Origin: Acetofilamentum sp.
GTDB taxonomy: Bacteria; Bacteroidota; Bacteroidia; Bacteroidales; DYOH01
DNA length: 64,000 nucleotides
Direction of reading: 5' to 3'
Assembly: GCA_020720625.1 (NCBI GenBank)
Contig: DYOH01000005.1
Coordinates: 12,943 to 76,942, forward strand
Of the stretch, positions 178 to 61,932 are shown in pieces. Both the position numbers and the translations under genes were made by a program. The notes below the pieces were generated by a model, which worked only from the letters and a program-made list of their open reading frames with translations, ran no database searches and was not told the DNA's origin. Position 1 is the stretch's first letter. Each line of letters opens with the position of its first letter.

Positions 178-209
178 TCATCCATTTTTTTAAAATATTC
201 TATTGAGGA

Positions 210-2804: not shown

Positions 2805-2808
2805 AAAT

Positions 2809-7684: not shown

Positions 7685-7690
7685 ATTACT

Positions 7691-8161
7691 TTATTGCAAA
7701 AAATCGAGATTTTCACTACCTAATATATTCTGAGCTAATTCGGCAAAATCTTCGTCTTCTTTCGTAGCATTTTCGTCTAAAAATTCCTTGGTCCAGATTT
7801 CGAGTTTTGTATCTAACCCTATAATAACCAAATCTTTGTCGGCAGAAATTTCATCGAGCAATCTTTTTGGCAAAAGCATCCTGTTGCTAGCATCGAGTTC
7901 AACTTCGGCAGTTGATCGAAAAAATCCTCTTAGAAACCTATTATGGTCTTGATTGTAAGGATTTAGCTTTTTTCTTAGAAATTCCACCTGACGTTCCCAT
8001 TCGTGGTATGGATATAAGACAAGGCAAGATTCAAAAATGTCTTTTTTTAGCACAAATCTCTCGCTTGCTGTTGTCGGAAGCTGCTTTTTAAAGGCTGCCG
8101 GAAACAGAATTCGACCTTTAGGGTCTAATTTACAAGATATTTCTCCAATAAAACTTGCCAT
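7691..8161 (-). CDS. mraZ: Transcriptional regulator MraZ
   Basis: FIGEISCKLDPKGRILFPAAF, plus a second SpoVT/AbrB-like half (LDASNRMLLPKRL). It is the first gene of the dcw cluster. Confidence 0.93.
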   Translation of the reverse strand: MASFIGEISCKLDPKGRILFPAAFKKQLPTTASERFVLKKDIFESCLVLYPYHEWERQVEFLRKKLNPYNQDHNRFLRGFFRSTAEVELDASNRMLLPKRLLDEISADKDLVIIGLDTKLEIWTKEFLDENATKEDEDFAELAQNILGSENLDFLQ

Positions 8162-29813: not shown

Positions 29814-29849
29814 TGTATATTTCTTTCTAAATATCTAATTCTGCAATTC

Positions 29850-31913: not shown

Positions 31914-32028
31914 AGTAAAACAATTCATAAATATTTGCAAAAGTAATTGATATGTAATAAACAAAAAAAACATTAACCAATTATTTTTTTTATTTTTGTA
32001 TTATGATTGTTGAGCAAAATAAATAGAT

Positions 32029-43187: not shown

Positions 43188-45131
43188 TTGAAAAACAAGA
43201 TAAACATGAAAAATTCACTCGCTTTAATGTTACTTGCCTCAGTTTTATTCTGGAGATTGACGCTTAATGCACAACAAAGCAATCCAATTTTTGATGATTT
43301 GAATATTCAGACCGGATACTACTGCGATGGAGAATATTCAAAAAGTACTGATTATGCTAAATATCTGTCCAATCTTAGTCTTAGCAATTTTACCATTTCG
43401 TGCCAGTTTAATGCAAATGAAAGCAGACGACATTGGGTTTTTGTGATGGGTTCGGGCTACCGTTGGCTTGGTTTCTTAATCAATGCCAATAATCAGATTT
43501 CATTTACGGCTAATAACCAGGATTACACACAGTTAACAGATGGCGTGATAGAACCTTCAAAGTGGTATACTGCCACAGTAGTGCATAATAATGGCACTAC
43601 AAAAGTTTTTTTAGATGATAAGGAAATTGGCTCTTATCAAATTGAATTTGTTGTTCCTGCCGGTGGCGATAACACGTTTACGACAACAAATTATTCTAAT
43701 GGAACAGCTTTTAAAGGATATATTAGAGCATTAAAAGTATGGAACGAATCACTTACCCCTGAGCAAGTGGCCAAATTGGCAGTAAATAAAACCAAAACTG
43801 CCGAAGCTCCACTAATCGTATTTCGCTCCCCAAGCCTTTCATATACTCAAACAAAAGAATCAGAATTTGAGCTTATTGCCTGTATTGAATCATCTGAAAT
43901 ATTAAAAACGTTTCAGATTTATATTAATGGTTATGCCAGTAGAGGCTTCAAATTAGCAGAAAATAATACCTGTGCGTATGCCGTTGAGAAAACAATTGAG
44001 CTAATCGAAGGAAAAAACACCATAAAAATTGTGGCCGAAAATTCGGGAGGAATAAGCACGTCCAATACCTTTGTTATTGAATATATTATTGACAAGAAAG
44101 ATATTACACCGCCAGAGATTAAAATAATTTCGCCAACAGTTACGCGAGGCTCAATTATTTTTGAGGCAACTGAAACAATTGAAGTAAAGGGAGTGGCAAC
44201 TGATGCCGGCGGATTAAAAAGCATCACCATAAATGAAATATCAGCAGCTTTTGATGCTAGCGGAAATTTTACCCAAAATATAGATTTAGAAGAAGGACAA
44301 AACACCTTTGTTGTGGTGGCCATAGATAATTCGGGAAACAAAAACAGCACAGCTTTTACAATACAGAACAAAGGCAATAGCACCCCAAGCAACGAGCCGG
44401 AAGAAAACCAAATTAACGCTTCGGGGAATTATTATGCCCTGATTATTGGTGTTGAAGAGTATCAAGACCCCAATATTACAAGTTTAGACCAACCCATTAA
44501 AGACGCAGAAAAATTGTATAATATCATTTCGACAAATTATACTTTTGCATCCCAAAACATTAAATTTCTAAAAAATCCAGGAGCCAACGAAATTACAGCA
44601 GCCTTAGAAGAATACTATACCAAGTTGTCAAAAGAAGACAATTTACTTATATTTTATGCCGGACATGGTTACTGGGACGAAAAATTTGATCAAGGATATT
44701 GGCTTGCAGCAGATGCCGAAAGAAGTAACAGAGGTACATGGCTATCAAATAGTACCATACGCGATTACATGAAAGCCATTCCGGCTAAACATACCTTATT
44801 GATAACAGACGCATGTTTTGGTGGTGGAATTTTCAAAAGCCGCAATGCCTTTTCCAATGCATCAGTAGCCATAAATCAGCTTTATAAATATCCGAGCAGA
44901 AAGGCCATGACCAGCGGGGCTTTGAGCGAAGTGCCGGATCAAAGCGTTTTTATTCAATTATTAGTTAGCCGTTTAGACGAAAATATGGAAAAATATCTTT
45001 CATCTGAAGAATTGTTCAACAGTTTTAAGGTTGCCGTGATTAATAATAGTGCCAACGGTCAAATTCCGCAATATGGCGAAGTTAAACAAACAGGCGACGA
45101 GGGTGGCGATTTTATTTTTATCAAAAAATAA
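43188..45131 (+). CDS. Exported LamG/ConA-like + Ig-like repeat protein with C-terminal caspase-like (peptidase C14) domain
   Basis: Signal peptide (..LLASVLFWRLTLNAQQ). A LamG-like block follows (WYTATVVHNNGTTKVFLDDKEIG, IRALKVWN), then two Ig-like modules. The caspase dyad contexts are LLIFYAGHGYW and HTLLITDACFGGGIF. Confidence 0.8.
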   Translation: MKNKINMKNSLALMLLASVLFWRLTLNAQQSNPIFDDLNIQTGYYCDGEYSKSTDYAKYLSNLSLSNFTISCQFNANESRRHWVFVMGSGYRWLGFLINANNQISFTANNQDYTQLTDGVIEPSKWYTATVVHNNGTTKVFLDDKEIGSYQIEFVVPAGGDNTFTTTNYSNGTAFKGYIRALKVWNESLTPEQVAKLAVNKTKTAEAPLIVFRSPSLSYTQTKESEFELIACIESSEILKTFQIYINGYASRGFKLAENNTCAYAVEKTIELIEGKNTIKIVAENSGGISTSNTFVIEYIIDKKDITPPEIKIISPTVTRGSIIFEATETIEVKGVATDAGGLKSITINEISAAFDASGNFTQNIDLEEGQNTFVVVAIDNSGNKNSTAFTIQNKGNSTPSNEPEENQINASGNYYALIIGVEEYQDPNITSLDQPIKDAEKLYNIISTNYTFASQNIKFLKNPGANEITAALEEYYTKLSKEDNLLIFYAGHGYWDEKFDQGYWLAADAERSNRGTWLSNSTIRDYMKAIPAKHTLLITDACFGGGIFKSRNAFSNASVAINQLYKYPSRKAMTSGALSEVPDQSVFIQLLVSRLDENMEKYLSSEELFNSFKVAVINNSANGQIPQYGEVKQTGDEGGDFIFIKK

Positions 45132-47890: not shown

Positions 47891-48054
47891 ATTATTTTTT
47901 TATTATCAGCAATTTTTAAATGCTTATTTAGAATAAAATAATGCACCAAGGTGAAGTTTATTTTGCATAATTTAATCTTTAAGCCTGTAAGATTAATAAT
48001 TCTAAATTACTAAAACAAAATAGTGCATAAAGATTTTTTTTTAATAGATTTTTT

Positions 48055-48062
48055 TAATTTTG
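48055..48062 (+). promoter_or_regulatory. Candidate -7 promoter box (TAATTTTG) for the STAND cassette
   Basis: Exact TAnnTTTG match 27 nt upstream of the ATG at 48089. I found no convincing -33 TTG. It lies inside the GTG-extended ORF-track model, which argues for the 48089 start. Confidence 0.3.
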
Positions 48063-48088
48063 GTATCAAAATTGCCAAAACAAGAATT

Positions 48089-48955
48089 ATGAGTCAACAA
48101 AGCAAAGAAATAAAAATATTTCTGGCTCAAACATCCTCAGATACGAACATATTGAACCAGAAATTAAGCACTGTTCTTCAAAAAGCAGGGTTCAAAGTTG
48201 CTATTTCTGAGCACTTAAGCCAAGAAGAACATACCGAGGAGTTAATGCTTTCGCATTGCTCTGTGCATGTAATAGGCGATTTTGTGGATCAATCTTCACA
48301 AGCTTTTTTGAATCAAGATTTTTCTTTGGCGCAGGAAAAAAATAGTACAGACGAAAATTTCACCATATTTGTGTGGCACCCCGAAACTAAATCTAAGAAA
48401 CAAGTAAACTCTGCATTTATAAATCAAATCCGAAATAAGATTAATCAGAACATGATTTTTAGTAATCATGAATCGGCAGTAATGTTTGTAGAAGACTTAA
48501 GGGGCGTAATTTCTGTGAATAAAGCAGCTGAATATCAAGTAAAAAAAACAGAAATATTCCTAATATACAACTCGTTAGATAGCTACAATGCCAAAGAAAT
48601 TATAGAAATGCTGCAAGATGTAAGCCCACCAGAAACCTTGGTAATAGAACCATCGTCGCGCACCGATTATGAAAAATATATCGCCAAACAGGTAAATAAT
48701 TCAATGCTGACGGTTGTGTACTTTAAATACGCCAACGAATGGGCGATTCCGTTTATGCAACAAATTTGGAAAATTTCGGGAGGTGCATCTATTCCGGGTC
48801 AATTTTTGCTTATTGCATCGAAAAATACAGCCAATATTCAAAACTTAGAATTTGAAGCCCCAAAGACTAGCTTCAAAATTGTAGATGATGAACTTATTCC
48901 TCTGGAAATTAAGGTAGTATTCGACAAAATTTCTAAACATAAGCACAATGATTGA
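48089..48955 (+). CDS. Hypothetical cytoplasmic protein with two tandem TIR-like/DUF4062-like alpha/beta modules (candidate effector or adaptor of the downstream STAND NTPase)
   Basis: There is no signal peptide. Module 1 is KEIKIFLAQTSSDTNILNQKLSTVLQKAGFKV...CSVHVIGD...FTIFVWHPE. Module 2 is TEIFLIYNSLDSYNAKEIIEML...LTVVYFKYANEWAIPFMQQIW...FLLIASK. Both open with the hydrophobic-strand + S/D + helix pattern of TIR/DUF4062 folds. The stop overlaps the next ATG (ATGATTGA). The fold call is an inference. The track start at 48023 is a GTG. Confidence 0.75.
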   Translation: MSQQSKEIKIFLAQTSSDTNILNQKLSTVLQKAGFKVAISEHLSQEEHTEELMLSHCSVHVIGDFVDQSSQAFLNQDFSLAQEKNSTDENFTIFVWHPETKSKKQVNSAFINQIRNKINQNMIFSNHESAVMFVEDLRGVISVNKAAEYQVKKTEIFLIYNSLDSYNAKEIIEMLQDVSPPETLVIEPSSRTDYEKYIAKQVNNSMLTVVYFKYANEWAIPFMQQIWKISGGASIPGQFLLIASKNTANIQNLEFEAPKTSFKIVDDELIPLEIKVVFDKISKHKHND

Positions 48956-51900
48956 ACTATCGCCATATCCCGGGCTTAGACCATTTACCGAAGAAGAATC
49001 TATATTCTTCAAAGGAAGGGATACGCATATCCGAAAAATTGTGCAACAACTCGAAGAGCGTAAAATTATCATCATCACTGGCGCTTCGGGCGACGGAAAA
49101 TCATCGTTGGTTTATGCAGGTGTTATTCCGGCAGCCAGAGCCGGATTTTTTAGAACCCAATTCAACAATTGGCTTATTTGCGATTTTAGACCAGAACGTT
49201 CGCCACTCGACAATTTAGCGCTTACACTTTCCGAAAACTTAAAGATTGACTTTAAAAACGTTAGAGATGAGTTAGACTTTGGTTTTTCTTCGCTTATTGA
49301 TGTATACAAAAAATCGGATTTCTACAAGGATGCCAACAATAATGATGGTAAAGGCGCCAATTTGTTCATACTGGCAGATCAATTCGAAGAATTTTTCACA
49401 AACCCAGAAAACTATTCCGACGGAAAAGCATCGGCCGAGGCCTATACTGCGGTTAACTTGTTATTGGAAACAGGCCGGATTGCATTAGCCGAAAACTTAC
49501 CTGTTTATGTTGTTTTTACCATGAGATCTGATTTTATTAGTCAGAGTGTGGTTTTTAAAGGACTACCTGAGATGATAGGATTTTCGCAGTTCTTTGTGCC
49601 TCGCCTAAAAAGACACGAATTGCAGATGGTTATCGAAGATCCGGCAAAGCTGGCAGGAGGAAAAATATCGGCACGTTTAACCCAAGTACTCATAAACGAA
49701 CTTCCGGATGGATTCGACCAGTTGCCACTTCTGCAACATGCGCTTAATAGACTATGGATTGAAGCAAAACATGGAAAAGAAGAACTTGATTTTATTCATT
49801 TAGCCCAAATTGGCGGATTTGATCGCGATATGCTTGAAGCTCAAGATCAGAATACTTACGACACTTTCTTTAACTCGCTGGATAACAAAACTAAAACATA
49901 TTTTCAAAATCCCAAATTTACCAATATTCTTAATCTCCACGCCAATTTCTTGTACGATCAGGCCTACGAATATGTAAAAAAACTAAATTGGCTCAAAGAA
50001 AAACCAACAAGAGAAGAAACCGATTTAATTCTGCGCACTGCTTTTAAATCGCTTACCAAAATTGATAATGGCAGAGCCGTGCGAAACAGAGTAGAATTAT
50101 CAGAAATAAAATATATAATTAACAAAAAACACGTTTCAACCGAAACGGTTTGCGCGGTACTGAATATTTTCCGATTACCCGGAAGCACTTTTGTAAAACC
50201 CTTTATCAACGAAAAAGATATAGAATCGGAAATACTGCCAACTAAACAGGTTTTGGATATTACCCACGAGGCCTTAATAAGAAACTGGCAGCTTTTGCAC
50301 CAATGGGGAGTAGAGGAATTAGGCTATTTATCAGACTACGAAGATTTAAAAATTCAGCTATTGAGGTGGATTGAGAATAATCAGAAAAAAAGCTATTTGC
50401 TAAACCTTGGTACCTTAAGCTATTTCGAAAACTGGTTTGAGAAAGCAAAACCAAACGATTTCTGGATAGCCAAAAACGAAAATTGGGCACTTCCGACCAA
50501 TGAAAAAAGGAAAAAGGCGAAAGACGTATTCGAACATATTGTTGATTTTTTAAAGCAAAGCAAAAATCATCTAGAACATCAGGCTGCCTCGAAAAGAAAG
50601 CTGCGAATAATTCTATTTACTGCATCCATTCTTGCCATTTTAGCACTTTCAGGATTATCAATTTGGGCACTGAACGAAAAAAGTTTTGCACAAAAACAAC
50701 AGCAAATAGCTGCAAACCAAAGCAAGATAGCATTAGAAGAAAAAGAAAAAGCAATCATAGCCCAAAAAACGGCCGAAGAACAAAGAATTCTGGCCATGGA
50801 TAATGAAAAAAAAGCCACAATGGCCAAACTCGCATCGGATAGTGCCCGTCAGGAAGCAATTTTTGCCAGAGCATTAGCCGAAGAGCAAAAAATTATAGCG
50901 CAGTTAGAAACTGAAAATGCATTAAAACAAAAAACTATAGCGCAAAATGAGCGAGTGATAGCCGAAGAACAAAAAAAAATAGCCGAAACACAACGAAAAA
51001 GAGCAATCTCAGCATCCGATAGCGCACAAAAACTTTCATATCTGGCTCTTGCTCAAACACTTGCATACAAAGTTAAAACCAAATTCGACGATGTTCAGCT
51101 AAATCTTTTGGTAGCTTATCAGGCCTTTTTATTTAACAAAAATGCCGGAGGATTCGAGTTTGATCCTGTAATTTTTGAAGGCTTAAAATATGCTGCCGAA
51201 CTTACCGAAAACGAATCGGAACTGGCCAAAAGTTACAATTTCTCTAACGAAATTCTTGCAACCAGAATTATTAATAAAGATAAAATTCTCATTTTATACA
51301 CCAATGGCACTATGGCAGAGCTCGACGCCAAACATAAAGTAGTAAAAACTACAAATCTGCTGGAAAAAAATGATGAACTTATTAGCAGTGCCTTTATCAT
51401 TAACGATTCTCTATTGGTAATATCTTTTGATAACTACGTAAATAGGCTAAACGATTTCAAGAATGAAAAAAAATATACTATAGAAGGACATACCAATTAT
51501 ATAAGAACTGCAACCTACGTGCCGGCCTACAAAGCCATTATTACCGGCGGACGTGATAATAAACTAAGTTATTCGGAGTTTACGAAGAACAAACTAAAAA
51601 ATATTCACCAAAATAATCTCCCGGATAAAATAAAAACCATTGACTATGGAAAATCTGATAACGAAGTTTGGATTGGACTTCAAAACGGAGATATTTATAC
51701 TTACCATCTTGGCAAAAACGAATTAGTTAAAATCAAGTCTTTTAAAGATGTCAGAGTAAACACTCTAAAGATAATGAATAACTCAAATTATGTTGTAGCA
51801 GGTCTATCCAATGGGCACCTAGTGTTTTTCAACAAACAATTAAAAACCATTGAAAACGATTTGTTTGTGAGTTATGCAGAAATTAACTCCCTAAGCATTG

Positions 51901-52208
51901 CAGAGCAGGAAGATATAATTGCTATTGGACTTGCCGACAACACCGTTAGGATATATCAAACAAATGCTTTAGGCGAAAAACCCATAATCATCAGCGGAAA
52001 ATTTGAGCATATTGATGATATTCAACTAAGTACAGAAAACAGTATTATGCTATTGGATAATAGAAAAAAAATGATGTATTATTTCTTAACGCCAAACGAT
52101 TATGCCGAATTTGTAAAAGAAAAAATTTCGCGAAACTTTTCAACAAAAGAATGGAACTCTATTGTTGGAAAAAATGTACCTTTCGAAAAAACAATTAATC
52201 ATTTTTAA
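48948..52208 (+). CDS. STAND-class P-loop NTPase (nSTAND/NACHT-like) - single TM helix - coiled coil - WD40-like beta-propeller
   Basis: N-terminal SPYPGLRPFTEEESIFFKGRD. Walker A GASGDGKSS (nt 49080-49106). Walker B LFILADQFEEFF (D144 at nt 49377-49379). One TM, IILFTASILAILALSGLSIWAL (nt ~50607-50672), preceded by KRKLR. An AEEQ(R/K)-repeat coiled coil follows (~50685-51047). WD40-like repeats come last (EGHTNYIRTATYVP..ITGGRDNKL; VAGLSNGHLVFF; IGLADNTVRIYQ). Confidence 0.85.
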   Translation: MIELSPYPGLRPFTEEESIFFKGRDTHIRKIVQQLEERKIIIITGASGDGKSSLVYAGVIPAARAGFFRTQFNNWLICDFRPERSPLDNLALTLSENLKIDFKNVRDELDFGFSSLIDVYKKSDFYKDANNNDGKGANLFILADQFEEFFTNPENYSDGKASAEAYTAVNLLLETGRIALAENLPVYVVFTMRSDFISQSVVFKGLPEMIGFSQFFVPRLKRHELQMVIEDPAKLAGGKISARLTQVLINELPDGFDQLPLLQHALNRLWIEAKHGKEELDFIHLAQIGGFDRDMLEAQDQNTYDTFFNSLDNKTKTYFQNPKFTNILNLHANFLYDQAYEYVKKLNWLKEKPTREETDLILRTAFKSLTKIDNGRAVRNRVELSEIKYIINKKHVSTETVCAVLNIFRLPGSTFVKPFINEKDIESEILPTKQVLDITHEALIRNWQLLHQWGVEELGYLSDYEDLKIQLLRWIENNQKKSYLLNLGTLSYFENWFEKAKPNDFWIAKNENWALPTNEKRKKAKDVFEHIVDFLKQSKNHLEHQAASKRKLRIILFTASILAILALSGLSIWALNEKSFAQKQQQIAANQSKIALEEKEKAIIAQKTAEEQRILAMDNEKKATMAKLASDSARQEAIFARALAEEQKIIAQLETENALKQKTIAQNERVIAEEQKKIAETQRKRAISASDSAQKLSYLALAQTLAYKVKTKFDDVQLNLLVAYQAFLFNKNAGGFEFDPVIFEGLKYAAELTENESELAKSYNFSNEILATRIINKDKILILYTNGTMAELDAKHKVVKTTNLLEKNDELISSAFIINDSLLVISFDNYVNRLNDFKNEKKYTIEGHTNYIRTATYVPAYKAIITGGRDNKLSYSEFTKNKLKNIHQNNLPDKIKTIDYGKSDNEVWIGLQNGDIYTYHLGKNELVKIKSFKDVRVNTLKIMNNSNYVVAGLSNGHLVFFNKQLKTIENDLFVSYAEINSLSIAEQEDIIAIGLADNTVRIYQTNALGEKPIIISGKFEHIDDIQLSTENSIMLLDNRKKMMYYFLTPNDYAEFVKEKISRNFSTKEWNSIVGKNVPFEKTINHF

Positions 52209-52218
52209 GTATCTTAAA

Positions 52219-53238
52219 ATGAAAAATATATTTATAATATTTGTTGTGTTTACCTTTTTTTCTAAACCAATTCTGGCTCAAGAAATAAGCGATTTAGACT
52301 TAAAAAGCGCCATAGGTTATTACGAAGAAGGAAGATTCGACAACACAATTCAACAATTAAAAAACAAAGACTTTAGAGCTTCAGAAAAAGAAAACAAATC
52401 AATCGCATATAAATATCTTGCGGCGGCTTATTATGCTATAGATGAACTAGAAACAGCAGATTCGCTGATGGTTGAATTTTTAAAACTGAATCCACTATAT
52501 AAAGAAAATAAAAATACCGATCCGGCCGAATTCAGCAGAAGAATGAAGCGCTTTAAAATCTATCCCAAATTAGGAATAAGTCTAAAACTAGGAGTAAACA
52601 GAACAAATGTTACCATTAGTCAAAGTAATACGCTTTCTCAGTCTGCTGTTTACAACAAGCCCTATATAAGCAAACCGGGATTGAATATATATTTAGGTAT
52701 GGAGCAACGGCTATTTTCAAATTTGTATTTAGATTTTGGAACAGGCCTGCAAACCATGGGCTATACACGCACAATTGAATACGCAAATCGTCCGTCAGCA
52801 GTAAATTTCCAATTTCAGGAAGACTTAAACCGTTTTGAAATATCTGCCGGTTTAAGCTACAAACTATTTATCCGGAATTTTGTAATAAATACCGGCGTAG
52901 GCACAGGAGCACTTTATAATAGAAGTGTCGTAAAAACAAATTATGCTGCCGCCGACCCACAATTAAACGAGGAAAATGTTTATCTGTCGAAAAACCGACT
53001 CGAATTTAACGCCCGTCATTATGCAAATATACGATTGGGCTACCAACTAGGAAACATTGAGTACTTTACTGATTTTACCTACAAAACAGACCTTATATCT
53101 CCGGTAATCGACATTTATTACCCCGAATGGTACTACCCGATGTTTTATGTAGATGACATTTTTTTTCTGAAAAATATGCAATTTACTGCAGGTATTAATT
53201 TGAGAATTAGATATAAAGTAAAAAACCGCTATGAATAA
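52219..53238 (+). CDS. Outer-membrane beta-barrel protein with N-terminal TPR-like periplasmic module
   Basis: Signal peptide MKNIFIIFVVFTFFSKPILAQE. A helical module follows (AIGYYEEGRFDNTIQQL...YKYLAAAYYAIDELETADSLM). Then come alternating hydrophobic/polar beta-strands (LGISLKLGVNRT, LNIYLGMEQRL, FEISAGLSYKLF, MQFTAGINLRIRYKV). The start is taken at 52219, 10 nt after the STAND stop. Confidence 0.68.
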   Translation: MKNIFIIFVVFTFFSKPILAQEISDLDLKSAIGYYEEGRFDNTIQQLKNKDFRASEKENKSIAYKYLAAAYYAIDELETADSLMVEFLKLNPLYKENKNTDPAEFSRRMKRFKIYPKLGISLKLGVNRTNVTISQSNTLSQSAVYNKPYISKPGLNIYLGMEQRLFSNLYLDFGTGLQTMGYTRTIEYANRPSAVNFQFQEDLNRFEISAGLSYKLFIRNFVINTGVGTGALYNRSVVKTNYAAADPQLNEENVYLSKNRLEFNARHYANIRLGYQLGNIEYFTDFTYKTDLISPVIDIYYPEWYYPMFYVDDIFFLKNMQFTAGINLRIRYKVKNRYE

Positions 53239-54481
53239 ATTAATCGCATACAGTATTATTTTACCGGCCATGGCAATTATCATGCAATCTTGCTTCCCAG
53301 ATAATAATACAGAGATACCAACAACCGAGGAGAAGGGTGTTATAGCATTTGAATATTCCCCATTTTTACCTCCTTTAAAAACAGATTCGGGTTATATTTT
53401 TATAAACAACGATTTTAATCTTATAGAAATTAGTAACAAAGGTTATCATTACATCCTTAATGATTATTCTTCTTTTTTTACTGATGCCCAACAAATAATA
53501 AACGATGGCGGAAGCGTACAATTTCAAAAGTCCAAATTACCCGATGATTATCTCATTTACACTATAAGTAAAAATGCACTTTCTCCCGACTACAGCCAAG
53601 TTAATATACTTAAAATTAATCAATTAGGAACTATCAACGCATTTTTTACCGTAAATATTCAAGCGGTAGATTCCATAAATAGAATTGATACCATATATAA
53701 TCGCGATTTTGTTGAACTAAATGTAATGTCGGATAAAATATGGATTGCCTTTTCGCTTAGCATTGATAAAATGCCTCAAAAGAAAAGATACTTAGAATTT
53801 TTGGTTTATAATTTTAGCGATAGTTTATTATTGGATACCATATTAGCAACAAACTCAAATCAAAAGCCGCTAAAAATTATTCAAAACAATCAGTCACTAG
53901 TATTCTTAAACACCGAATTTAGTCCACAAGGACCAAAACTTGTGATGAGAACAATAGATGGCAACTATAATTTAACCGACAGCGCATTTATAAGTATTCC
54001 TGCTACAGAAATTTATTATACAAACTTTTTGCCCAACAATAATTATTTCTTTGCAGGAATTGAAAATCAAGAATTTAGCGATGCAACGAGCCAGAAAAAC
54101 TTTGTTGCCGAAATAAGTCCCACAGGAGAATTACTTTTATATAAAAATAATTTTAACTATAACTACTTATTTTTTTATGATGTAGTAAAAGTAGATGATG
54201 GGTATTTATCGTGCGGCTTATACTCTATAAATCAAAGTTTTCCTTCTTGGACCGCCATTAAGGAACTTACCGGAACAGCTTATTTTCTAGGATATTTCAA
54301 CAATACCACAGATTCGCTTATTATGGCCAACACCACTGCTTATGGAACATCGCTTAGCACCGGCTTGCATAAAACTGAAAACGGATACACCCTGCTTAAC
54401 TATATGTCATTTATCGACAATCCGTTGAGCGAAACGTATTTATGGTTATATAAATTAAACAAAGATTTTAAAATCGAATAA
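53231..54481 (+). CDS. Hypothetical lipoprotein (beta-rich)
   Basis: Lipoprotein-type signal MNKLIAYSIILPAMAIIMQSC. There is an 8-nt overlap (ATGAATAA) with the upstream gene. I recognise no family. Confidence 0.68.
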   Translation: MNKLIAYSIILPAMAIIMQSCFPDNNTEIPTTEEKGVIAFEYSPFLPPLKTDSGYIFINNDFNLIEISNKGYHYILNDYSSFFTDAQQIINDGGSVQFQKSKLPDDYLIYTISKNALSPDYSQVNILKINQLGTINAFFTVNIQAVDSINRIDTIYNRDFVELNVMSDKIWIAFSLSIDKMPQKKRYLEFLVYNFSDSLLLDTILATNSNQKPLKIIQNNQSLVFLNTEFSPQGPKLVMRTIDGNYNLTDSAFISIPATEIYYTNFLPNNNYFFAGIENQEFSDATSQKNFVAEISPTGELLLYKNNFNYNYLFFYDVVKVDDGYLSCGLYSINQSFPSWTAIKELTGTAYFLGYFNNTTDSLIMANTTAYGTSLSTGLHKTENGYTLLNYMSFIDNPLSETYLWLYKLNKDFKIE

Positions 54482-55678
54482 ATGATGCTGATTACCATTG
54501 GAGTATTAGGATTTTTGCTCATAATAGCTATTTTGTTTATTATCTTTGTGGGTGATTTTAAAAAAGCAGGGGAGATATACGTACAAAACAAACCTGCCTA
54601 CAAAATTTCGGATATTTCAAATACATCGCTCTCCTTTGACGACGAACAACTTAAAGATGAATTGAAACGCCAAGGAATACTTATCGAAGAATTAAATAGG
54701 CGAATACAAGAAAACACATCAAAAACAGTTTCCCATAAAAAAGAATCAGCATCTGATTTATCAAAAGAAATGATTGATTTGGCTCGTCAGACTCAAATTT
54801 TGGAGCAGGAAAAAGTATTATTTATAGAAAAAAACAAAAAACTTTGGGAACAAAGTGTGGCCATACATAAAGAAAAAGAACGGATTGACAGCATAAAATC
54901 GGAAATAGAAGCGCGACACAAAGAAATCGTTGACAGTATTAATTACGCACAAACTATTCAGAAAGCAATTGTTACAGGAAAAAAATACCTGGACACCTTA
55001 TTAACGGATTATTTTATTTTGTGGTTGCCAAAAAATGTGGTAAGCGGAGATTTTTATTGGGCCAAAGAAACTCCCAAAGGTTTAATGCTCATTGTTGCAG
55101 ATTGCACCGGTCATGGGGTTCCGGGTGCATTTATGAGCCTTTTGGGAATATCGTTTCTAAATCAGATTGTATCGCAAAACAGCAATATAGAGCCGGCGGA
55201 ACTCCTGGAAGAGATGAGAAAAAATGTAAAATCGGCCTTGCACCAAAACGACAATTCATTTACAAACAAAGATGGAATGGATATGTCGTGCGTTTTAATC
55301 GATTATCAAACAAAAAAAATAGTTTTTGCTGGTGCTAATAATCCAGGATGGATATTTCACGAACAAGAAATGATAGAGTTAGATGCGGTTAAAAATCCAA
55401 TAGGTGTTTTTCGCCGGGAAAAACCGTTCGAACAAGCTGAATATCAATACACTAAAAATGATATTTTGTATTTATTCTCCGATGGTTATGCCGACCAATT
55501 TGGCGGAAAACAAAATACAAAACTTAAGCGACAATCGTTTAAAACTTTTCTGCTCGAGGTTTCGTCGCAAAAACTAAAAATGAGCTCCATACAAGAATTA
55601 GCTCACGAATTTTTCCTTATGTGGAAAGGAAAAAACAAACAAACTGACGATGTTATTCTTATGGGCATAAGACTATAA
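54482..55678 (+). CDS. Membrane-anchored PP2C-type (SpoIIE/RsbU-like) serine phosphatase with coiled coil
   Basis: N-terminal TM LITIGVLGFLLIIAILFIIFV followed by KK, then a coiled coil. PP2C motifs are VSGDFYW, VADCTGHGVPGAFMS, DGMDMS, SDGYADQFGG and TDDVILMGIRL. The ATG directly abuts the upstream TAA. Confidence 0.85.
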   Translation: MMLITIGVLGFLLIIAILFIIFVGDFKKAGEIYVQNKPAYKISDISNTSLSFDDEQLKDELKRQGILIEELNRRIQENTSKTVSHKKESASDLSKEMIDLARQTQILEQEKVLFIEKNKKLWEQSVAIHKEKERIDSIKSEIEARHKEIVDSINYAQTIQKAIVTGKKYLDTLLTDYFILWLPKNVVSGDFYWAKETPKGLMLIVADCTGHGVPGAFMSLLGISFLNQIVSQNSNIEPAELLEEMRKNVKSALHQNDNSFTNKDGMDMSCVLIDYQTKKIVFAGANNPGWIFHEQEMIELDAVKNPIGVFRREKPFEQAEYQYTKNDILYLFSDGYADQFGGKQNTKLKRQSFKTFLLEVSSQKLKMSSIQELAHEFFLMWKGKNKQTDDVILMGIRL

Positions 55679-56170
55679 GCTGGTGAAATCGAAATCTAGC
55701 GCCCTATGGCCAGTAAATTCGAAAAAAAGATACAAATCTTTTCCCGATATTTTTACAGTAGCCGTATTATCATTAGGGTGAAATAAAAGTGCATCTGCAT
55801 ACTTAAGTTGCATATCTACAATTAGTTCTACTTTATTGTCTTTGTCGTTAATAAGCCCAAATGGAGAAACTGCCCCGGGAGTTAAAGCCAGATGCTTAAA
55901 CAAGCGCTCAGGCGAAGCAAAGGTAAAGTGCTGATTCTCAATTTTTTTCTTTAATAATTTCAACGAGAATTCGGTATCATGTTTCAGGATAACCAAAAAA
56001 TGTCTATCTCCTTTATTATTTCTTAGAAACAAATTCTTACATGCCCAAGCATCAATATTTTGCCAGTATTTCATGGCATCCTCTATTGTAGGAAGCGCTT
56101 GGTGTGCATAAAAATCAAATTTTATATTCAGCTTTTGGAGTAGTTCCAACACATTCTCTATATTTGTCAT
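55673..56170 (-). CDS. YbaK/ProX-type aminoacyl-tRNA(Pro) trans-editing deacylase-like protein
   Basis: 165 aa. KNLFLRNNKGDRHFLVIL and PGAVSPFGL are motifs of the ProRS-INS/YbaK superfamily. Its ATGA start overlaps the upstream SpoIIE gene stop. Confidence 0.82.
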   Translation of the reverse strand: MTNIENVLELLQKLNIKFDFYAHQALPTIEDAMKYWQNIDAWACKNLFLRNNKGDRHFLVILKHDTEFSLKLLKKKIENQHFTFASPERLFKHLALTPGAVSPFGLINDKDNKVELIVDMQLKYADALLFHPNDNTATVKISGKDLYLFFEFTGHRALDFDFTSL

Positions 56171-58023
56171 GTCAATTGAATTCCCATAATTGTAATATCA
56201 TCGCGCTGCGGAGTATCCTGGCAGTGTTCATCTAAATCGGCTTCGATAGTCTCCTTTTGCACAACCATTGGCTCTTGGGCAATTTTTGCAAGTAAATCGA
56301 GTAATCGTTTAGACCCATATTTTTTTCTTTGTGTATTGTTCTGATCCACTAAACCATCGGAAGAGAGATAAATCATATCCTTTGGTTTAAGTATCACATG
56401 AAAATCGGTAAACTCCTCGTTGAACCGCTTTCCTTCTATTCCGCCAATAGTAGCCATAGTGCCTCTTTGATATTTTAACTCTTTCTCCGACGAATCAAAA
56501 TAGATAAATGGCCGGTTGGCTCCGGCAAAAATCACATGGTACTTGTCTTCTTTATGTTCAATACGTATTAATGCTACATCCATACCATCGTCGTTAGAAG
56601 TTTCGCTCTGATTTAAGGCCTTCTGTAACTCCAGGTTAAGCTTGGTTAGAATAGCCGATGGCTCTGTAATGTTTTTCTCGAACAATATTTCGTTTAGAAT
56701 CCTAATCCCGATAAGGCTCATAAATGCCCCCGGAACGCCATGCCCGGTGCAATCAACTACGGCATAATAGTAGGCGTGAGTATTAGTTGGGCTAAGCGTT
56801 CGGTGTGCATACCAGTAAAAATCGCCCGACACAATATCTTTGGCCTTATAAACTTTGAAAAGCGGAAAATGACGATTCAGATCGCTTTCGAGCGGCAATG
56901 CTGCCAATTGTATGGTTTTAGCATAAGTAATGGCTCCTTTTATTTGTTCGTTGCGTGCATTTATCTCTTTGTTTTGTTGCTCTATTTCGCCATTCTTCAA
57001 TGCAAGAAGATTATTTTGTTTTGCAATTTCAGAATTTTTTTGTTCTAAAAGTGCATTTTGTTTTTCAATCTCCTCTTTTTGTTTCTTAATTTGGTTTTTA
57101 CTTCTATTAATCAGAAAAAACAAATATGATATTACGGCAAGCACTAGCAATAAAAATAGGAGGCCAAATGCAAGTGCACGGGTAACTAATCTCTCATTAT
57201 CCAATTCTGATTGCTTTAGTTTAAGATCCTGCTCCTTGATTGTAAGCTGGTAATCAGACTCCCGTTTTGCAAGCTCAGCTTTCTCCAAAGAATCCTGATA
57301 AGATGTTAGCGTTTGATTTTTTATCTCGATTTCTTTTTCTTTCTCCGAAATATCTTCTTTGTAAATATTAGTTTGCTCATTAAATACCTCTTTGGTTTGC
57401 TCCAGTTTTCTTTTTTCAATAATTTGTGAGTATTTAGCATAATTTGCATTATCGCCACTAGCCTGACAAACGAAAGCAATTTCGGCATAAAATTTATCGA
57501 CCAATTGATCGTCGTAAGCTTCGAAAATAATTTTTTTCTCTAAAGGCTTTAGAATATCATAAGCTTTCTGATAAGATTTAGCTCTTCTGTAAAATGAAGC
57601 TATGTTTATTTGCTCGTCGTAAAAAACTTTTTTACTGTTGCCAAGCTGCAAAGTATATTTATTGGCCTCTCCGAGGTAATTTGCAGCATTTGTGAAATTT
57701 CCGGTTTGCATATTACACATCGAAAGGGCAAGGGCAGTATTTCTAATAAGCTGATTCTGCGACAGATTTTTTGCATTACCCAAAGCAGCCTCGTAATATG
57801 TTATGGCCAGGACAGGCAGATTGTTTTTCTGGTAAATTTCTGCAATTTCTTTGTTTAATTTAAATTGCTCGCCTGCATTTCCGCCGGTTTGAGCAGCACT
57901 TAATGCACTCAGCTTTTGATCTACAGCACTTTGTGCCGATGCATTTAACTGTTGCGAAAATAAAGCTGTGGAAAACATCATTAAACAGCTCAAAATCAAT
58001 ATTTTTCTAGCCATAGCACCCAT
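56167..58023 (-). CDS. Exported TPR domain - TM - coiled coil - PP2C (SpoIIE/RsbU-like) phosphatase
   Basis: Signal/anchor, TPR-like N-half, then TM ALAFGLLFLLLVLAVISYLFFLI. The coiled coil is KKQKEEIEKQNALLEQKNSEIAKQNNLL... The PP2C motifs are VSGDFYW, VDCTGHGVPGAFMS, DGMDVA, SDGLVDQ and RDDITIMGIQL. Confidence 0.85.
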   Translation of the reverse strand: MGAMARKILILSCLMMFSTALFSQQLNASAQSAVDQKLSALSAAQTGGNAGEQFKLNKEIAEIYQKNNLPVLAITYYEAALGNAKNLSQNQLIRNTALALSMCNMQTGNFTNAANYLGEANKYTLQLGNSKKVFYDEQINIASFYRRAKSYQKAYDILKPLEKKIIFEAYDDQLVDKFYAEIAFVCQASGDNANYAKYSQIIEKRKLEQTKEVFNEQTNIYKEDISEKEKEIEIKNQTLTSYQDSLEKAELAKRESDYQLTIKEQDLKLKQSELDNERLVTRALAFGLLFLLLVLAVISYLFFLINRSKNQIKKQKEEIEKQNALLEQKNSEIAKQNNLLALKNGEIEQQNKEINARNEQIKGAITYAKTIQLAALPLESDLNRHFPLFKVYKAKDIVSGDFYWYAHRTLSPTNTHAYYYAVVDCTGHGVPGAFMSLIGIRILNEILFEKNITEPSAILTKLNLELQKALNQSETSNDDGMDVALIRIEHKEDKYHVIFAGANRPFIYFDSSEKELKYQRGTMATIGGIEGKRFNEEFTDFHVILKPKDMIYLSSDGLVDQNNTQRKKYGSKRLLDLLAKIAQEPMVVQKETIEADLDEHCQDTPQRDDITIMGIQLT

Positions 58024-58036
58024 TTTTTTGTTTTAC

Positions 58037-61024
58037 CTAAGGTTTTAGCACATTGCCATTATTGGCTTTACCATCAATTTTTATCACCATCGGATTTTGA
58101 AACCTAACCAATCTAAGGTATTCATTTTCAAAAACCGCATCAGTTTTATTCAAGAAATCAATATCATAATAGCCGTCGTTAATATACGGATTAATTGTAA
58201 AATACCCCACATGAAAAGATGTAAGATTTTGAAAAAAATGAGTTCCCTGACTTGGATCAATTCTATAGTGCTCTAATCCGGCTTCAATAATAAGCCGGGC
58301 AGCCGAAATTTGCGACCACTTTACTGGAATACCCAGCCAGGGGTCTGAGGAGCCCCATCTCCCCGGGCCTATCAAAATATAGTTTCTGCCCTCTGCCACC
58401 ATCATCTCGTTCAGTTCGCTTACCTGCTCTCCAATTTCCCTGCTATTTGCTGCGTTAAAACTTGAGGGTTTTACATATACAATATCGAAAATGTTATCTA
58501 TTAATCCGTTTCCCAGTGCCGATTTCGACATAATTATGCAGTCTTCAGGTTTATCGCCCGATAAATCGATTGCCTTTTCATCCTGACTTTCTACTATGGG
58601 CCTAATTTGCAGAAAACTAAATATTTTTGGGGAATCGGCAGGAGTATCTAAATCTACAGCAAACTCAATTTCTATAGGATTATTCATTTCCTTTTGCCCA
58701 ACTTTTAGCAAATCCTGCAATATATCGGCCAATGGAAATGTATCGTATTGCAAAATATTTGCAAAGGTAATTATCTTCAGCCCCTGATAATTTGCTCCCG
58801 CACGAATCATGTGGTGATGGTAATCGTAGGTTGATGCTACTTGATTTATCGAACGATGCATTTCTGCTTCTTTTATCTTTTTCTTGAGCAAATTTGCCGA
58901 GTCGTCGGTAGATGGTAAAAAATTTGTGGTATCTAAATTTAATGCATAAAAATACTTTTGGGTATCGCGCAGAGCCATGTCGGTGGAGCTTAACTGCAAA
59001 ACTTTTTTGGGATATTTGGGCGAAAAACGCAATGACACACCTCCGTCTACAATTATTTTGCCTAAACCCAAAGCAATATTGGCAATGCCATCGGCCGGTG
59101 TTTCGGGCTCGATGGGATAGAAATTAATACTTCGGGCTACTCCAGAAAAAGTAGGATAAAACATGTGTCCATATTTCTTCCCGGTTACTTCCTGTAGAAT
59201 AATGGCCATTTTTTCTTCGTCGATTACATTGGATGTAGCGGCCATGTATGCCTTGCTCGATTTAAAATAAACAGATGCATAAACACTTTTTATGGCTTTG
59301 GCCAAAAAATCTATGGCTTTGGTTTTGTTGCCACTTACATTGGGAACCATATATGTTGAGTAAATTCCAGCAAATGGCTGATAATGGCTATCTTCCAGTA
59401 CACTTGAAGATCTAACCGCAATTGGATTCTCCATTACTTCCAGAATTTTCCACAAATCGTCGTAAATGTACTGCGGTAGCGGGCATTCTAAAAATTTTTG
59501 CAGGATAAAATCATCGGTAGAATCATCTAAAGCAATCTGATACAAATGGTTAGAATCCATAAATTCGTCAAAAACATCTGTACTCAATACCACCGTACGT
59601 GGAATGGCAATTACTGTATTTTTATATTTGCAACAAATTTTATTTCGTTTAATAAAAGAATCAATAAAAGCAAGGCCACGTGCTTTTCCGCCAATCTGGC
59701 CTTCTCCAATGCGGGCAAAAAAGATATAGGGACTATAGGTTTTTCTGTCGAATTTGGAAATAACACCGCGTCCCATATTTAACCGATAGCTGGCTATGGT
59801 TCGGTAAATATAATTACTGGCCACTTCTACACTCTCAAAATCGTCGATTGTAAGGTACTTGAGTTGTTTGGCAATAGGAAAAAGAGCACGAGCATTAAGC
59901 CACCTGGAAAAATCATTTCTGTTAAAATGATATTCAAGAGTTTCAACCGGAATTTTACGAACTTTCTCCTGCAGCTCGTTTAAATCGGAGGCTCTATCGA
60001 CAATCTCACCTTTTTTGTTTTTAAATAAAAAATCACCAAAAGCCAAATTAGTAAAAACATAGTTTCTGAGCTCAATGATAAGACTTTTAGAGTATTTATA
60101 CAAAAATCCCACATTTAGGTCGTCGGCAAGAAATTTATTCTTATAATCGGACGATTGCAGCAAAATCGGAATATGAGGGTCTATGGTTTTGATATGCTGT
60201 GCAAGTTTTATTCCTGCCAGATTATCTTTTTTCCCATTGTGAGCATAGGCAATGTCCGAAATTACACCCAAACAGTTTTCTTTATAGCGTTCGAAAAGCT
60301 CTACAGCCTCTTCGTATGTTGTGCAAAACAAAAGTTTTGGCCGGCCCCTCATGCGAAGCATTTCCCTGTATTCGTTAAGTCCCTCTTTTTGAAACTCGTG
60401 CGATTGTTTGAGAATTATTTTGTAGATTATGGGCAAATAACTAGAGTAATACCGAATGCTATCCTCCACCATCAGGATGGTCTGTACCCCTATTTCCTGC
60501 ACGTCGTGGGCAACATTCATCTGGTCTTCGATGAGTTTAATAATGGCCAGCAGCAAATCGGTATGCCCCAACCAGGAAAATACATAATCTACCGAACCTA
60601 ACTCTTCTTTCTCTAACTTTAGGCTAATTTCGCGCGAGAAATGAGTTAGAGCAACAATAGGAATATGTGGAAATTCGTTTTTTATCGCTCTCGAAAGCTC
60701 AAATATATCGGTATGGTCGGCGCTAAGCATAGTGATTACCAAATCGATTTTTTCGTTTTTCAGAATTCGTAATGCTTTTGCTGTTTTGTTAGCATGAAGA
60801 AAAACAGGCGGATACCTTAAATTCAAAGAAACATATTCTCTAAAAATCATTTCATCAATACGACCATCCTCTTCGAGCATAAAAAAATCGTAATTACTAC
60901 AAATTATCAATACTTTGTAGATACGACGCTGCATCAAATATTTGAAAGAAGTTTCGTTAAAACGAAATTTCTGAGAATCAACTAACTGCTGTTCAAGAGA
61001 CATACTATTTTCGGCTGTTGTCAT
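58037..61024 (-). CDS. Two receiver-like domains + PEP/pyruvate-binding (PPDK_N ATP-grasp) domain protein
   Basis: REC-like 1 is degenerate (KVLIICSNYD...DLVITML...PIVALTHF). REC 2 is intact (ILMVEDS...GVISDIAY...ILLQSS...YKYS). The PPDK/PEP-synthase N-terminal motifs are GGKARGLAFI and VRSSSVLEDSHYQPFAGIYSTY. I saw no TSHAA-type phosphohistidine swivel motif. Confidence 0.82.
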   Translation of the reverse strand: MTTAENSMSLEQQLVDSQKFRFNETSFKYLMQRRIYKVLIICSNYDFFMLEEDGRIDEMIFREYVSLNLRYPPVFLHANKTAKALRILKNEKIDLVITMLSADHTDIFELSRAIKNEFPHIPIVALTHFSREISLKLEKEELGSVDYVFSWLGHTDLLLAIIKLIEDQMNVAHDVQEIGVQTILMVEDSIRYYSSYLPIIYKIILKQSHEFQKEGLNEYREMLRMRGRPKLLFCTTYEEAVELFERYKENCLGVISDIAYAHNGKKDNLAGIKLAQHIKTIDPHIPILLQSSDYKNKFLADDLNVGFLYKYSKSLIIELRNYVFTNLAFGDFLFKNKKGEIVDRASDLNELQEKVRKIPVETLEYHFNRNDFSRWLNARALFPIAKQLKYLTIDDFESVEVASNYIYRTIASYRLNMGRGVISKFDRKTYSPYIFFARIGEGQIGGKARGLAFIDSFIKRNKICCKYKNTVIAIPRTVVLSTDVFDEFMDSNHLYQIALDDSTDDFILQKFLECPLPQYIYDDLWKILEVMENPIAVRSSSVLEDSHYQPFAGIYSTYMVPNVSGNKTKAIDFLAKAIKSVYASVYFKSSKAYMAATSNVIDEEKMAIILQEVTGKKYGHMFYPTFSGVARSINFYPIEPETPADGIANIALGLGKIIVDGGVSLRFSPKYPKKVLQLSSTDMALRDTQKYFYALNLDTTNFLPSTDDSANLLKKKIKEAEMHRSINQVASTYDYHHHMIRAGANYQGLKIITFANILQYDTFPLADILQDLLKVGQKEMNNPIEIEFAVDLDTPADSPKIFSFLQIRPIVESQDEKAIDLSGDKPEDCIIMSKSALGNGLIDNIFDIVYVKPSSFNAANSREIGEQVSELNEMMVAEGRNYILIGPGRWGSSDPWLGIPVKWSQISAARLIIEAGLEHYRIDPSQGTHFFQNLTSFHVGYFTINPYINDGYYDIDFLNKTDAVFENEYLRLVRFQNPMVIKIDGKANNGNVLKP

Positions 61025-61044
61025 AAAATCATCCTTATCCTAAA

Positions 61045-61932
61045 TTATTGCATAATATCAAAATTTACGTACTGTATTGTTTTTCTTCTGTTAAACCAAA
61101 GAGCAACACCGGTGGTTCCAACCCAGAAAATATTCACAAGCAAATAAAACAAATAGAAACTCATTTTGTCTTGCAAAAAATGTTTCTCAAAATCTTGCTC
61201 CGGTTGAATAAAAATGGCATTTTCTGATATTCTGATATCTTTTGTTTTTTCTAATTTCCAAATAGCTTTGGAGTAAATCTTTTTTTGCTCAGATTCTTTA
61301 ATTATCAAGCCCCCATTTTTAGTAAGCTCAGAATTACTGCTTATGAGATAGGGAAGATTCCAGTTTTCGAGATTACTCCCTTTATTTACACTAGTTTCAC
61401 AAAAAAAGGCCATTATTGGCTCGTCGAATGTCCATTGCTCCGAAACCAATGGATAAGCATAAAAAGATTTTACAACTTTATAGGTGCTATCTCCATCTAC
61501 ATCGTTTACAGTTTCGTGATACTCTCCTTTTAAATCGTACAATATTACACCAGAACTAAACGAAATCCAAAGTGCATCTCTATTTTGTGGAATATCTCTT
61601 ATCTCGGCATTAAAAACAACCTTGCTATTAAGTAGCTCGCCATAATACTGTGGGCCTGTAAAAATGGCAATCATCATTGGCAACCAAAGCGAAATGGCCG
61701 ATATTCCTATTGTAAAAAATATTAAATCGCGATATGTCCGATACGAACGAAAATATTTCTTAATTACCGACATAAAAATTCCCAATAAAGCTGCGGGTAA
61801 TAAAAATAAAAAAATAATGGCCGAAACGATTGGTTTAAAACAATGAAAATGAAACAAAAAAATGCTAATTACAGTATTTACAAAAATCAACTGTAATATA
61901 AAGAGGAAAATATTGATACGTGTTTTAATCAT
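61045..61932 (-). CDS. Hypothetical membrane protein (3 N-terminal TM, ~150-aa extracytoplasmic domain, C-terminal TM)
   Basis: 295-aa ORF ending 20 nt upstream of the REC-PPDK_N gene on the same strand. Hydrophobic segments include IFLFILQLIFVNTVISIFLF, IVSAIIFLFLLPAALLGIFM, LIFFTIGISAISLWLPMMIAIF and FYLFYLLVNIFWVGTTGVALW. Confidence 0.6.
   Translation of the reverse strand: MIKTRINIFLFILQLIFVNTVISIFLFHFHCFKPIVSAIIFLFLLPAALLGIFMSVIKKYFRSYRTYRDLIFFTIGISAISLWLPMMIAIFTGPQYYGELLNSKVVFNAEIRDIPQNRDALWISFSSGVILYDLKGEYHETVNDVDGDSTYKVVKSFYAYPLVSEQWTFDEPIMAFFCETSVNKGSNLENWNLPYLISSNSELTKNGGLIIKESEQKKIYSKAIWKLEKTKDIRISENAIFIQPEQDFEKHFLQDKMSFYLFYLLVNIFWVGTTGVALWFNRRKTIQYVNFDIMQ

Follow-up and report, generated by a model that had tools for sequence, protein, structure and literature searches.

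The window, the whole stretch of 64,000 nucleotides of Acetofilamentum sp. DNA analysed here (contig DYOH01000005.1, positions 12,943 to 76,942), carries on its minus strand a run of four closely packed genes at 55673–61932. The second of these encodes a 995-residue protein in which two response-regulator receiver domains (REC1 and REC2) precede a PPDK_N-type ATP-grasp domain, and it is this protein that forms the subject of the analysis. It is an orthologue within a large and catalogued 'REC + PPDK_N' response-regulator family, of which it is an ordinary member. New here are the undescribed C-terminal domain (CTD) in which the chain ends, the adjacency of the family to glutamate dehydrogenase (GDH) genes and the presence upstream of a sensor-bearing paralogue. 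Our preferred reading, a tentative one of slightly less than even confidence, is that the protein is a receiver-gated phosphotransferase of the dikinase type that is controlled through Asp257, has His929 of the CTD charged by the ATP-grasp domain, and serves an external acceptor which probably belongs to glutamate/2-oxoglutarate metabolism or its regulation. The first-pass annotation of this DNA had described a receiver-controlled dikinase-like enzyme with an unnamed acceptor. This remains the best description; the PEP-utilizers domain and the barrel of phosphoenolpyruvate (PEP) synthase are both absent. The gene and the domains of its product are:

58037–61024, minus strand: the receiver-regulated PPDK_N ATP-grasp protein (995 residues) on which the finding centres.
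60497–60937, minus strand: REC1, residues 30–176, a pseudo-receiver that lacks the aspartate, delimited by the Pfam Response_reg match at residues 76–149 and the AlphaFold secondary structure.
60047–60487, minus strand: REC2, residues 180–326, an intact receiver, with the Asp257 codon at 60254–60256.
59705–60046, minus strand: linker domain, residues 327–440, mostly helical and distantly DUF5752-like.
58565–59704, minus strand: PPDK_N-type ATP-grasp domain, residues 441–820 (Pfam PF01326, E 4e-39, at residues 443–818).
58040–58549, minus strand: CTD, residues 826–995 (170 residues), conserved and undescribed, with the His929 codon at 58238–58240.

The AlphaFold model of the whole protein (pLDDT 85.8, pTM 0.81), together with residue invariance judged over 80 aligned homologues (orthologues and paralogues), upholds the earlier view that one receiver is degenerate and the other intact. 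REC1 is recognized by Pfam with 33 bits (cut-off 30.2). Its phospho-acceptor position, directly after strand 3 (residues 95–98), is occupied by Met99, and neither the acidic pair nor the Lys is present. With Met99 in place of the phospho-acceptor Asp, REC1 is classed as an aspartate-less receiver (ALR). REC2 adopts a (βα)5 arrangement in the model and contains Glu187, Asp188, Asp257, Ser291 and Lys310, all of which are invariant in the 80 sequences.

In Foldseek searches the receivers match PleD-like REC-REC proteins. As in the protein described here, PleD-type regulators and ALR proteins contain tandem receivers only one of which can be phosphorylated. In PleD, however, it is the first receiver that is phosphorylated and the output is a GGDEF domain, whereas the 995-residue protein has its pseudo-receiver first and an ATP-grasp enzyme as output. 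PorX, a Bacteroidota protein in which a receiver is joined to an alkaline-phosphatase fold, is among the weak Foldseek matches and likewise has an enzymatic, non-DNA-binding output, but the fold and chemistry of that output are unrelated to those of the 995-residue protein, and its partner kinase and pathway are known. The combination of REC and PPDK already appears in response-regulator censuses, and ALR domains have been reported to be enriched before PPDK-type outputs (PMC4395418). Literature searches on the family, on DUF5752 and on the link to GDH returned only two censuses that name the architecture and no functional study.

The linker domain that follows the receivers matches DUF5752 with E 0.0017 in this protein, and 11 of 30 diverse family members give a match, the best at E 3e-6. 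The ATP-grasp domain has its nucleotide and Mg ligand motifs intact (GGK447, R538-S-S, E785-x-E787 and Q806-x-R808). The catalytic motifs are invariant in the family and, with E-D and F-A-G, align with those of PEP synthase and rifampin phosphotransferase (RPH) in the PDB. The longer strings GGKARGLAFI, VRSSSVLEDS and FAGIYSTY, picked out at first reading, are found at residues 445, 537 and 551, respectively. The top Foldseek matches of the domain are RPH (5hv1, E 2e-12) and the dikinase ATP-grasp subunit HpeI (9goj, E 5e-11).

RPH (5hv1, 5fbs), HpeHI and phenylphosphate synthase have the same PPDK_N-type ATP-grasp nucleotide motifs and provide the best structural match. Dikinases of the RPH/HpeHI type similarly lack a PEP/pyruvate barrel and carry a separate domain after the ATP-grasp on a flexible tether. 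They contain, however, a defined domain for substrate binding and a canonical swivel, of the G-G-x-T-H/TSH type (PMC12167813), where the 995-residue protein has instead one domain of 170 residues without detectable similarity to them; it also adds two receivers and the DUF5752-like linker in front.

PEP synthase and pyruvate, phosphate dikinase (PPDK) have the ATP-grasp domain in common with the 995-residue protein and present the same order of ATP-grasp, linker and small His-bearing domain, the last of which opens with a 'G-x-G ... D' hairpin, as does the CTD. By contrast, the 995-residue protein contains neither the PEP-utilizers mobile domain (PF00391), for which Pfam gives no match even at E 10, nor the C-terminal TIM barrel (PF02896), for which there is also no Pfam match; the chain ends at residue 995 with the CTD. 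Neither TSH nor G-x-[ST]-[SC]-H occurs anywhere in the sequence, in agreement with the first-pass annotation, which had seen no swivel motif. The protein scores far under the equivalog cut-offs (52.9 bits, where the best NCBIfam model of PEP synthase requires 883), and its family adjoins GDH rather than a gluconeogenic context. The normal swivel and PEP-utilising domain of an ordinary PEP synthase or PPDK, the outcome against which the original proposal had been set, are absent.

Domain searches and AlphaFold modelling of the C-terminal 250 or so residues, suggested at the outset, revealed the CTD as a conserved 170-residue domain with an invariant His. Modelled alone it reaches a pLDDT of 89.7. 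It contains GPGRWG at residues 886–891, Asp894 and an invariant G-T-His929 at the N-terminus of helix 929–936. The motifs GPGRWG and G-[ST]-H-F-F are invariant in the family, as are Arg889, Asp894, Glu914, Ser925 and Asn933. His929 is the first residue of its helix, is preceded by Gly-Thr (Gly-Thr/Ser in the family) and lies in the loop that is modelled with the lowest confidence; the linker from the ATP-grasp domain to the CTD also has low pLDDT. No part of the protein is more conserved than the CTD, which holds 22 of the 42 columns that are invariant across 30 diverse architectures, including the sole invariant His (His929).

Clustering at 50% identity gives 1799 clusters that contain the CTD. 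Segment profiles find it always joined to an ATP-grasp domain, including in stand-alone proteins and double-module fusions, and it closes the chain in nearly all of the 150 clusters listed, with an internal first copy in P0249, P0256 and P0266. No relative is detectable outside the REC-REC-PPDK_N-CTD family. Pfam gives no match to the CTD even at E 10, a search of its profile against PDB sequences returns chance matches only, and Foldseek finds no significant match in the PDB or BFVD.

The family as a whole comprises more than 8000 homologues of the 995-residue protein, almost all of about 990 residues, which fall into about 1800 clusters at 50% identity. Hundreds of proteins across the Bacteroidales show full-length identities of 55–78% over 98–99% of the length, and the same architecture is found in contigs of 26–65% GC. 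Source annotations vary between 'phosphoenolpyruvate synthase', 'pyruvate, phosphate dikinase', 'PEP/pyruvate-binding domain-containing protein', 'response regulator' and CheY-like protein. The 995-residue protein itself is made up of Asp-less pseudo-receiver, intact receiver (Asp257), helical DUF5752-like linker, complete PPDK_N ATP-grasp, flexible linker and CTD. Across the family the ATP-grasp domain and the CTD form an obligatory core, and the receivers and sensor extensions are optional additions. The core occurs alone in proteins of 549–581 residues, one of which was verified in its contig. Other forms carry one receiver before the core, or the pseudo-receiver, receiver and linker of the dominant form of about 990 residues. 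Extended forms have N-terminal extensions of 150–570 residues that are presumably sensory, and double modules of 1520–1650 residues contain two ATP-grasp-CTD copies per chain (P0249, P0256, P0266). One of these, P0266 (1654 residues), has a nucleotidyltransferase domain of the Pol-beta type (NTP_transf_2, E 1e-7) at its C-terminus.

For the gene neighbourhood about 170 related loci were compared, among them 82 Bacteroidales loci (80 kept from a scan of 185,579 species genomes, with L001 and L002), 80 more diverse metagenome loci, and close relatives. The proteins of the 82 Bacteroidales loci are 55–63% identical to the 995-residue protein, the best orthologue among the 80 kept species-representative loci having 63% identity. 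The strongest recurrent neighbour of the family is GDH, which 27 of the 82 Bacteroidales loci contain, in most cases immediately downstream. In the diverse metagenome loci a GdhA-type gene lies less than 600 nt from 33 of 86 family genes, and from 20 of the 40 that have 1.6 kb or more of flank on each side; the two genes nearly always share a strand, and the GdhA-type gene may be up- or downstream. The family proteins linked to GDH in this way have a median identity of 42% (minimum 33%) and come from contigs of 31–64% GC. The double-module protein P0249 is encoded 55 nt from a GDH of a different subfamily (36% identical), and at several loci (L156, L159 and L170) the genes alternate as enzyme-GDH-enzyme-GDH.

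About half of the Bacteroidales loci have a paralogue of about 1150 residues (36% identical) immediately upstream on the same strand. This paralogue family (1150–1570 residues; L001 4527–7988, P0121–P0240) contains the same pseudo-receiver, receiver, linker, ATP-grasp and CTD, preceded by a variable N-terminal extension with no Pfam match that is presumed to be a sensor region, and its genes usually stand directly upstream of the form of about 990 residues. Neighbourhoods with GDH, the sensor-bearing paralogue or both are frequent (about half of the loci), and they are not defining for the family. These family-wide partners had been missed by the first-pass annotation. Other recurrent neighbours in Bacteroidales, among them genes for 2-oxoacid:ferredoxin oxidoreductase, FabD, FolE, QueD, SodB and Mqn proteins, look like lineage synteny and not like a functional link, and an alanine dehydrogenase-like gene upstream in L083 is confined to that locus.

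In the proposed mechanism, an unlinked histidine kinase would phosphorylate Asp257 and so switch the enzyme, and the ATP-grasp domain would charge the invariant His929. The CTD would occupy the place of the swivelling phosphohistidine domain of PEP synthase and RPH, and the phosphoryl group would pass from it to an acceptor outside the 995-residue protein. The recurrent neighbours across the family, GDH and the sensor-bearing paralogue, make the metabolism of glutamate, 2-oxoglutarate or nitrogen the most likely place for the acceptor or target. A domain that follows the ATP-grasp, is held by a tether and presents Gly-Thr-His at the N-terminus of a helix has, by analogy, the features that would be expected of a phosphoryl carrier. 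The invariant His929, which begins a helix and sits on a flexible loop, is circumstantial evidence that the reaction may pass via a phosphohistidine intermediate and yield AMP, as in RPH and HpeHI. To our knowledge all characterized PPDK_N-type dikinases need a carrier His. In the HpeHI/RPH subfamily, mutating the conserved swivel His of HpeH abolishes kinase activity (PMC12167813).

Several observations weigh against this reading. The CTD compared with the PEP-utilizers mobile domain gives an hhalign probability of less than 1%, with profiles built from PpsA alone, from 30 non-redundant mobile domains, and from a set widened with PEP synthase, RPH, the pyruvate kinase C-terminal domain and EI from the PDB. 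In Foldseek the best PDB match of the CTD has E 6e-3 with TM below 0.3, and no dikinase is among the 50 best matches. With no significant resemblance between the CTD and the mobile domain, the phosphohistidine role of His929 is argued solely from position, conservation and analogy. The window contains neither a GDH gene nor the paralogue, and the link to nitrogen metabolism is therefore transferred from orthologues; moreover, gene neighbourhood cannot separate a regulatory from an enzymatic link. No HisKA/HATPase_c protein is present among the ORFs of at least 150 residues in the window, within which the 995-residue protein thus appears to be an orphan regulator. Finally, the case for co-transcription of the four genes is one of spacing alone.

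A cryptic canonical swivel domain within the CTD was considered as a separate candidate. It gained no significance in Pfam, the PDB profile search, hhalign or Foldseek, and stays an unproven possibility. Both HMMER and hhalign lay the 'G-N-G ... D' hairpin of the CTD on the 'G-x-G ... D' hairpin that opens the PEP synthase His domain, at a level that is not significant. Threading of the CTD by eye on the PpsA His domain pairs the G-x-G hairpins, 'ILI..DPW' with 'VLVT..DPDW', 'GTHFF' with 'GGRTCHAA', and 'IKIDGK..G' with 'V.VDG..G'.

This lack of detectable homology to swivel domains also counts in favour of a different account, in which the CTD is a substrate- or partner-binding domain or a second catalytic domain, the ATP-grasp domain acts directly, as a kinase or ligase, on the substrate that is bound, and His929 is a catalytic base or ligand residue. 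The strand followed by GPGRWG, a loop of the G-x-G-x-x-G kind, together with the invariant Arg889, Asp894, Glu914, Ser925 and Asn933, resembles a ligand or phosphate site, and the ATP-grasp superfamily also includes ligases. On the other hand, the low-confidence tether puts the CTD exactly where the carrier domain of PEP synthase sits, and a carrier His is, from general knowledge, a feature of all characterized PPDK_N-type enzymes. The HpeHI/RPH subfamily provides the documented instance of such a His (PMC12167813). We regard this account as possible, and give it limited credence.

The other genes of the four-gene arrangement bear on a further alternative. They are:

61045–61932, minus strand: a 295-residue membrane protein without Pfam or NCBIfam match, a lineage-specific upstream neighbour.
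56167–58023, minus strand: a 618-residue membrane PP2C phosphatase, assigned from its SpoIIE domain and hydropathy.
55673–56170, minus strand: a 165-residue YbaK/ProX-type protein with a tRNA_edit domain, a lineage-specific downstream neighbour.

The coordinates of the four minus-strand ORFs check out as originally described. A gap of 20 nt (61025–61044) precedes the gene for the 995-residue protein and one of 13 nt (58024–58036) precedes that for the phosphatase, whose end overlaps the gene for the 165-residue protein by 4 nt (56167–56170; minus strand ...ACATGACA...) in an ATGA start/stop. The end of the last gene in turn overlaps by 6 nt with the stop of the plus-strand SpoIIE gene at 54482–55678, such that two cassettes converge. 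With more than 8000 homologues of the 995-residue protein, the ORFs are taken to be real genes and not chance ORFs. Judged by their spacing the four genes are packed tightly enough for co-transcription, yet the arrangement is a local one. A scan for sigma-70 promoters and terminators gave counts at or below the shuffled expectation, the method being ill-suited to Bacteroidota promoters, and Rfam gave no match anywhere in the window.

The 295-residue membrane protein has three to four N-terminal hydrophobic segments and one at the C-terminus, by hydropathy. The phosphatase consists of a signal or transmembrane (TM) segment, an extracytoplasmic TPR-like region of about 250 residues, a TM segment at 277–309, a coiled coil and the SpoIIE domain (residues 417–616, Pfam E 1e-25), with a weak TPR match in addition. 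The 165-residue protein matches Pfam tRNA_edit with E 2e-25, while its NCBIfam YbaK score of 31.6 is below the cut-off of 153.

Homologues of the membrane protein and of the YbaK-like gene are present in none of the roughly 170 related loci. The four genes had been proposed as a conserved unit and the membrane protein as a possible input; the first idea is contradicted by these absences and the second has no support. A SpoIIE gene stands next to the gene for the enzyme only in L083, L084 and L171, three close relatives of 76–78% identity. In P0003 (76% identity) 62 nt separate the enzyme from a 615-residue SpoIIE protein; in P0002 (78% identity) 80 nt are followed by the N-terminus of a protein of that kind, L171 containing the N-terminal fragment. 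The SpoIIE proteins of L083 and L084 are 44–45% identical to the 618-residue phosphatase over about 600 residues. At 67% identity the neighbouring gene is an unrelated one, and no adjacent same-strand SpoIIE gene is found in the other 165 or so loci. Non-adjacent SpoIIE genes occur 4 kb away on the other strand in L052 (the sole case in the 82 Bacteroidales loci) and 8 kb away in L085, with a weak match in L093.

It has been suggested that the enzyme and the membrane PP2C form an opposing kinase/phosphatase pair that acts on a common Ser/Thr-phosphorylated target, with the TPR region of the phosphatase or the upstream membrane protein as input. The 13-nt spacing and the sensor-like topology of the phosphatase fit such a pair, and the three close relatives keep the order, with the 62- and 80-nt gaps, which lends the pairing weak support. 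It does not extend to the rest of the family, the pairing being limited to one narrow clade. Furthermore, the upstream membrane protein is not conserved at all, nor do domain scans of the window reveal a nearby gene for a STAS protein or another of the usual PP2C substrates. We know of no PPDK_N-type enzyme that phosphorylates proteins. Taken together this makes an opposing pair rather unlikely.

The locus of P0003, the closest relative with good flanks, also accounts for the position of the YbaK-like gene. Three genes that follow the phosphatase there (L083 9244–15823) correspond to window positions 27603–34221, with order and orientation kept and identities of 61%, 55% and 44%. They encode a TPR protein, a PD40-CarboxypepD_reg-OmpA protein and a protein of 716–739 residues without family. 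In the window about 21.4 kb lie between the phosphatase and this block, including the YbaK-like gene, an nSTAND/SpoIIE cassette and housekeeping genes (rpsO-pnp and ruvC among them). The comparison of gene order indicates a probable rearrangement or insertion between 34225 and 55672. Because the genes that follow the phosphatase in L083 are some 21 kb away here, the 4-nt coupling of the YbaK-like gene is a recent local juxtaposition. The coupling of a tRNA-editing fold to this module, which had been considered puzzling, consequently needs no functional explanation.

A self-contained phosphorelay would make the ATP-grasp domain and CTD an unorthodox histidine kinase, with transfer from phospho-His929 to Asp257 of its own receiver or that of a paralogue. 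A single chain carries both the His and the Asp site, paralogues occur in tandem, some modules are fused in pairs, and no histidine kinase is found nearby. However, receiver-less ATP-grasp-CTD proteins keep the invariant His, from which it follows that the function of His929 is independent of the receiver, and no output domain would be left to act on the signal; such a relay is very improbable. The database names and the PPDK_N domain notwithstanding, an ordinary, mis-split or diverged PEP synthase or PPDK is refuted by domain content and can be dismissed, there being no mobile domain or barrel in the protein or in neighbouring genes, a score of 53 bits against a cut-off of 883, and an intact ORF whose length is conserved in thousands of homologues.

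The phosphotransferase reading may be taken further. The ATP-grasp-CTD core could represent a new phosphotransfer class with a non-canonical phosphohistidine carrier, placed under two-component control and covalently modifying either GDH or else some metabolite or regulator at the glutamate/2-oxoglutarate node, the adjacent PP2C being the reverse enzyme in this lineage. In this full form the proposal is speculative and, on balance, improbable. If modification of GDH or of the glutamate node were true, it would constitute an unrecognized post-translational switch of nitrogen control in Bacteroidota and many other anaerobes. Nitrogen control in Bacteroidota is poorly understood, and the link to GDH offers a concrete, testable lead both to it and to the function of the family. 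The family itself is very widespread and strongly conserved, with identities of about 60% throughout an order, and goes under the wrong names of PEP synthase, PPDK or 'CheY-like protein' in databases; it combines a dikinase-type ATP-grasp with a single undescribed domain in place of the canonical carrier and substrate domains. For this window, the 'operon' becomes a local gene arrangement and the tRNA-editing puzzle dissolves.

The cassette that converges on the four genes (48023–55678, plus strand) consists of five tightly packed genes and has the appearance of a STAND-type signalling or conflict cassette. Its products are a 310-residue protein, an nSTAND1 NTPase-WD40 protein (1086 residues, PF20703, E 4e-65), a 358-residue lipoprotein that is weakly TssQ-like, a 416-residue protein and a TM-coiled-coil-SpoIIE phosphatase (398 residues). 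The two cassettes had been described as a signalling island of about 14 kb with two paralogous SpoIIE phosphatases, and the relationship of these two is borne out by 31% identity over 317 residues (E 1e-38). Elsewhere in the window, caspase-domain (Peptidase_C14) proteins are encoded at 20618–22837 and 43188–45131, both on the plus strand; TPR repeats are fused to one of them, and LamG, cadherin-like and glucodextranase-B-like domains to its counterpart. Taken with the nSTAND cassette, these proteins suggest a genome rich in STAND/caspase-type systems. At the start of the window (1–8161, minus strand) is a standard dcw cluster with mraZ, rsmH, an ftsI-like penicillin-binding protein gene with a PASTA domain, murE, mraY and murD, from which the window is taken to be ordinary chromosome of a Bacteroidota-like organism of about 35% GC.

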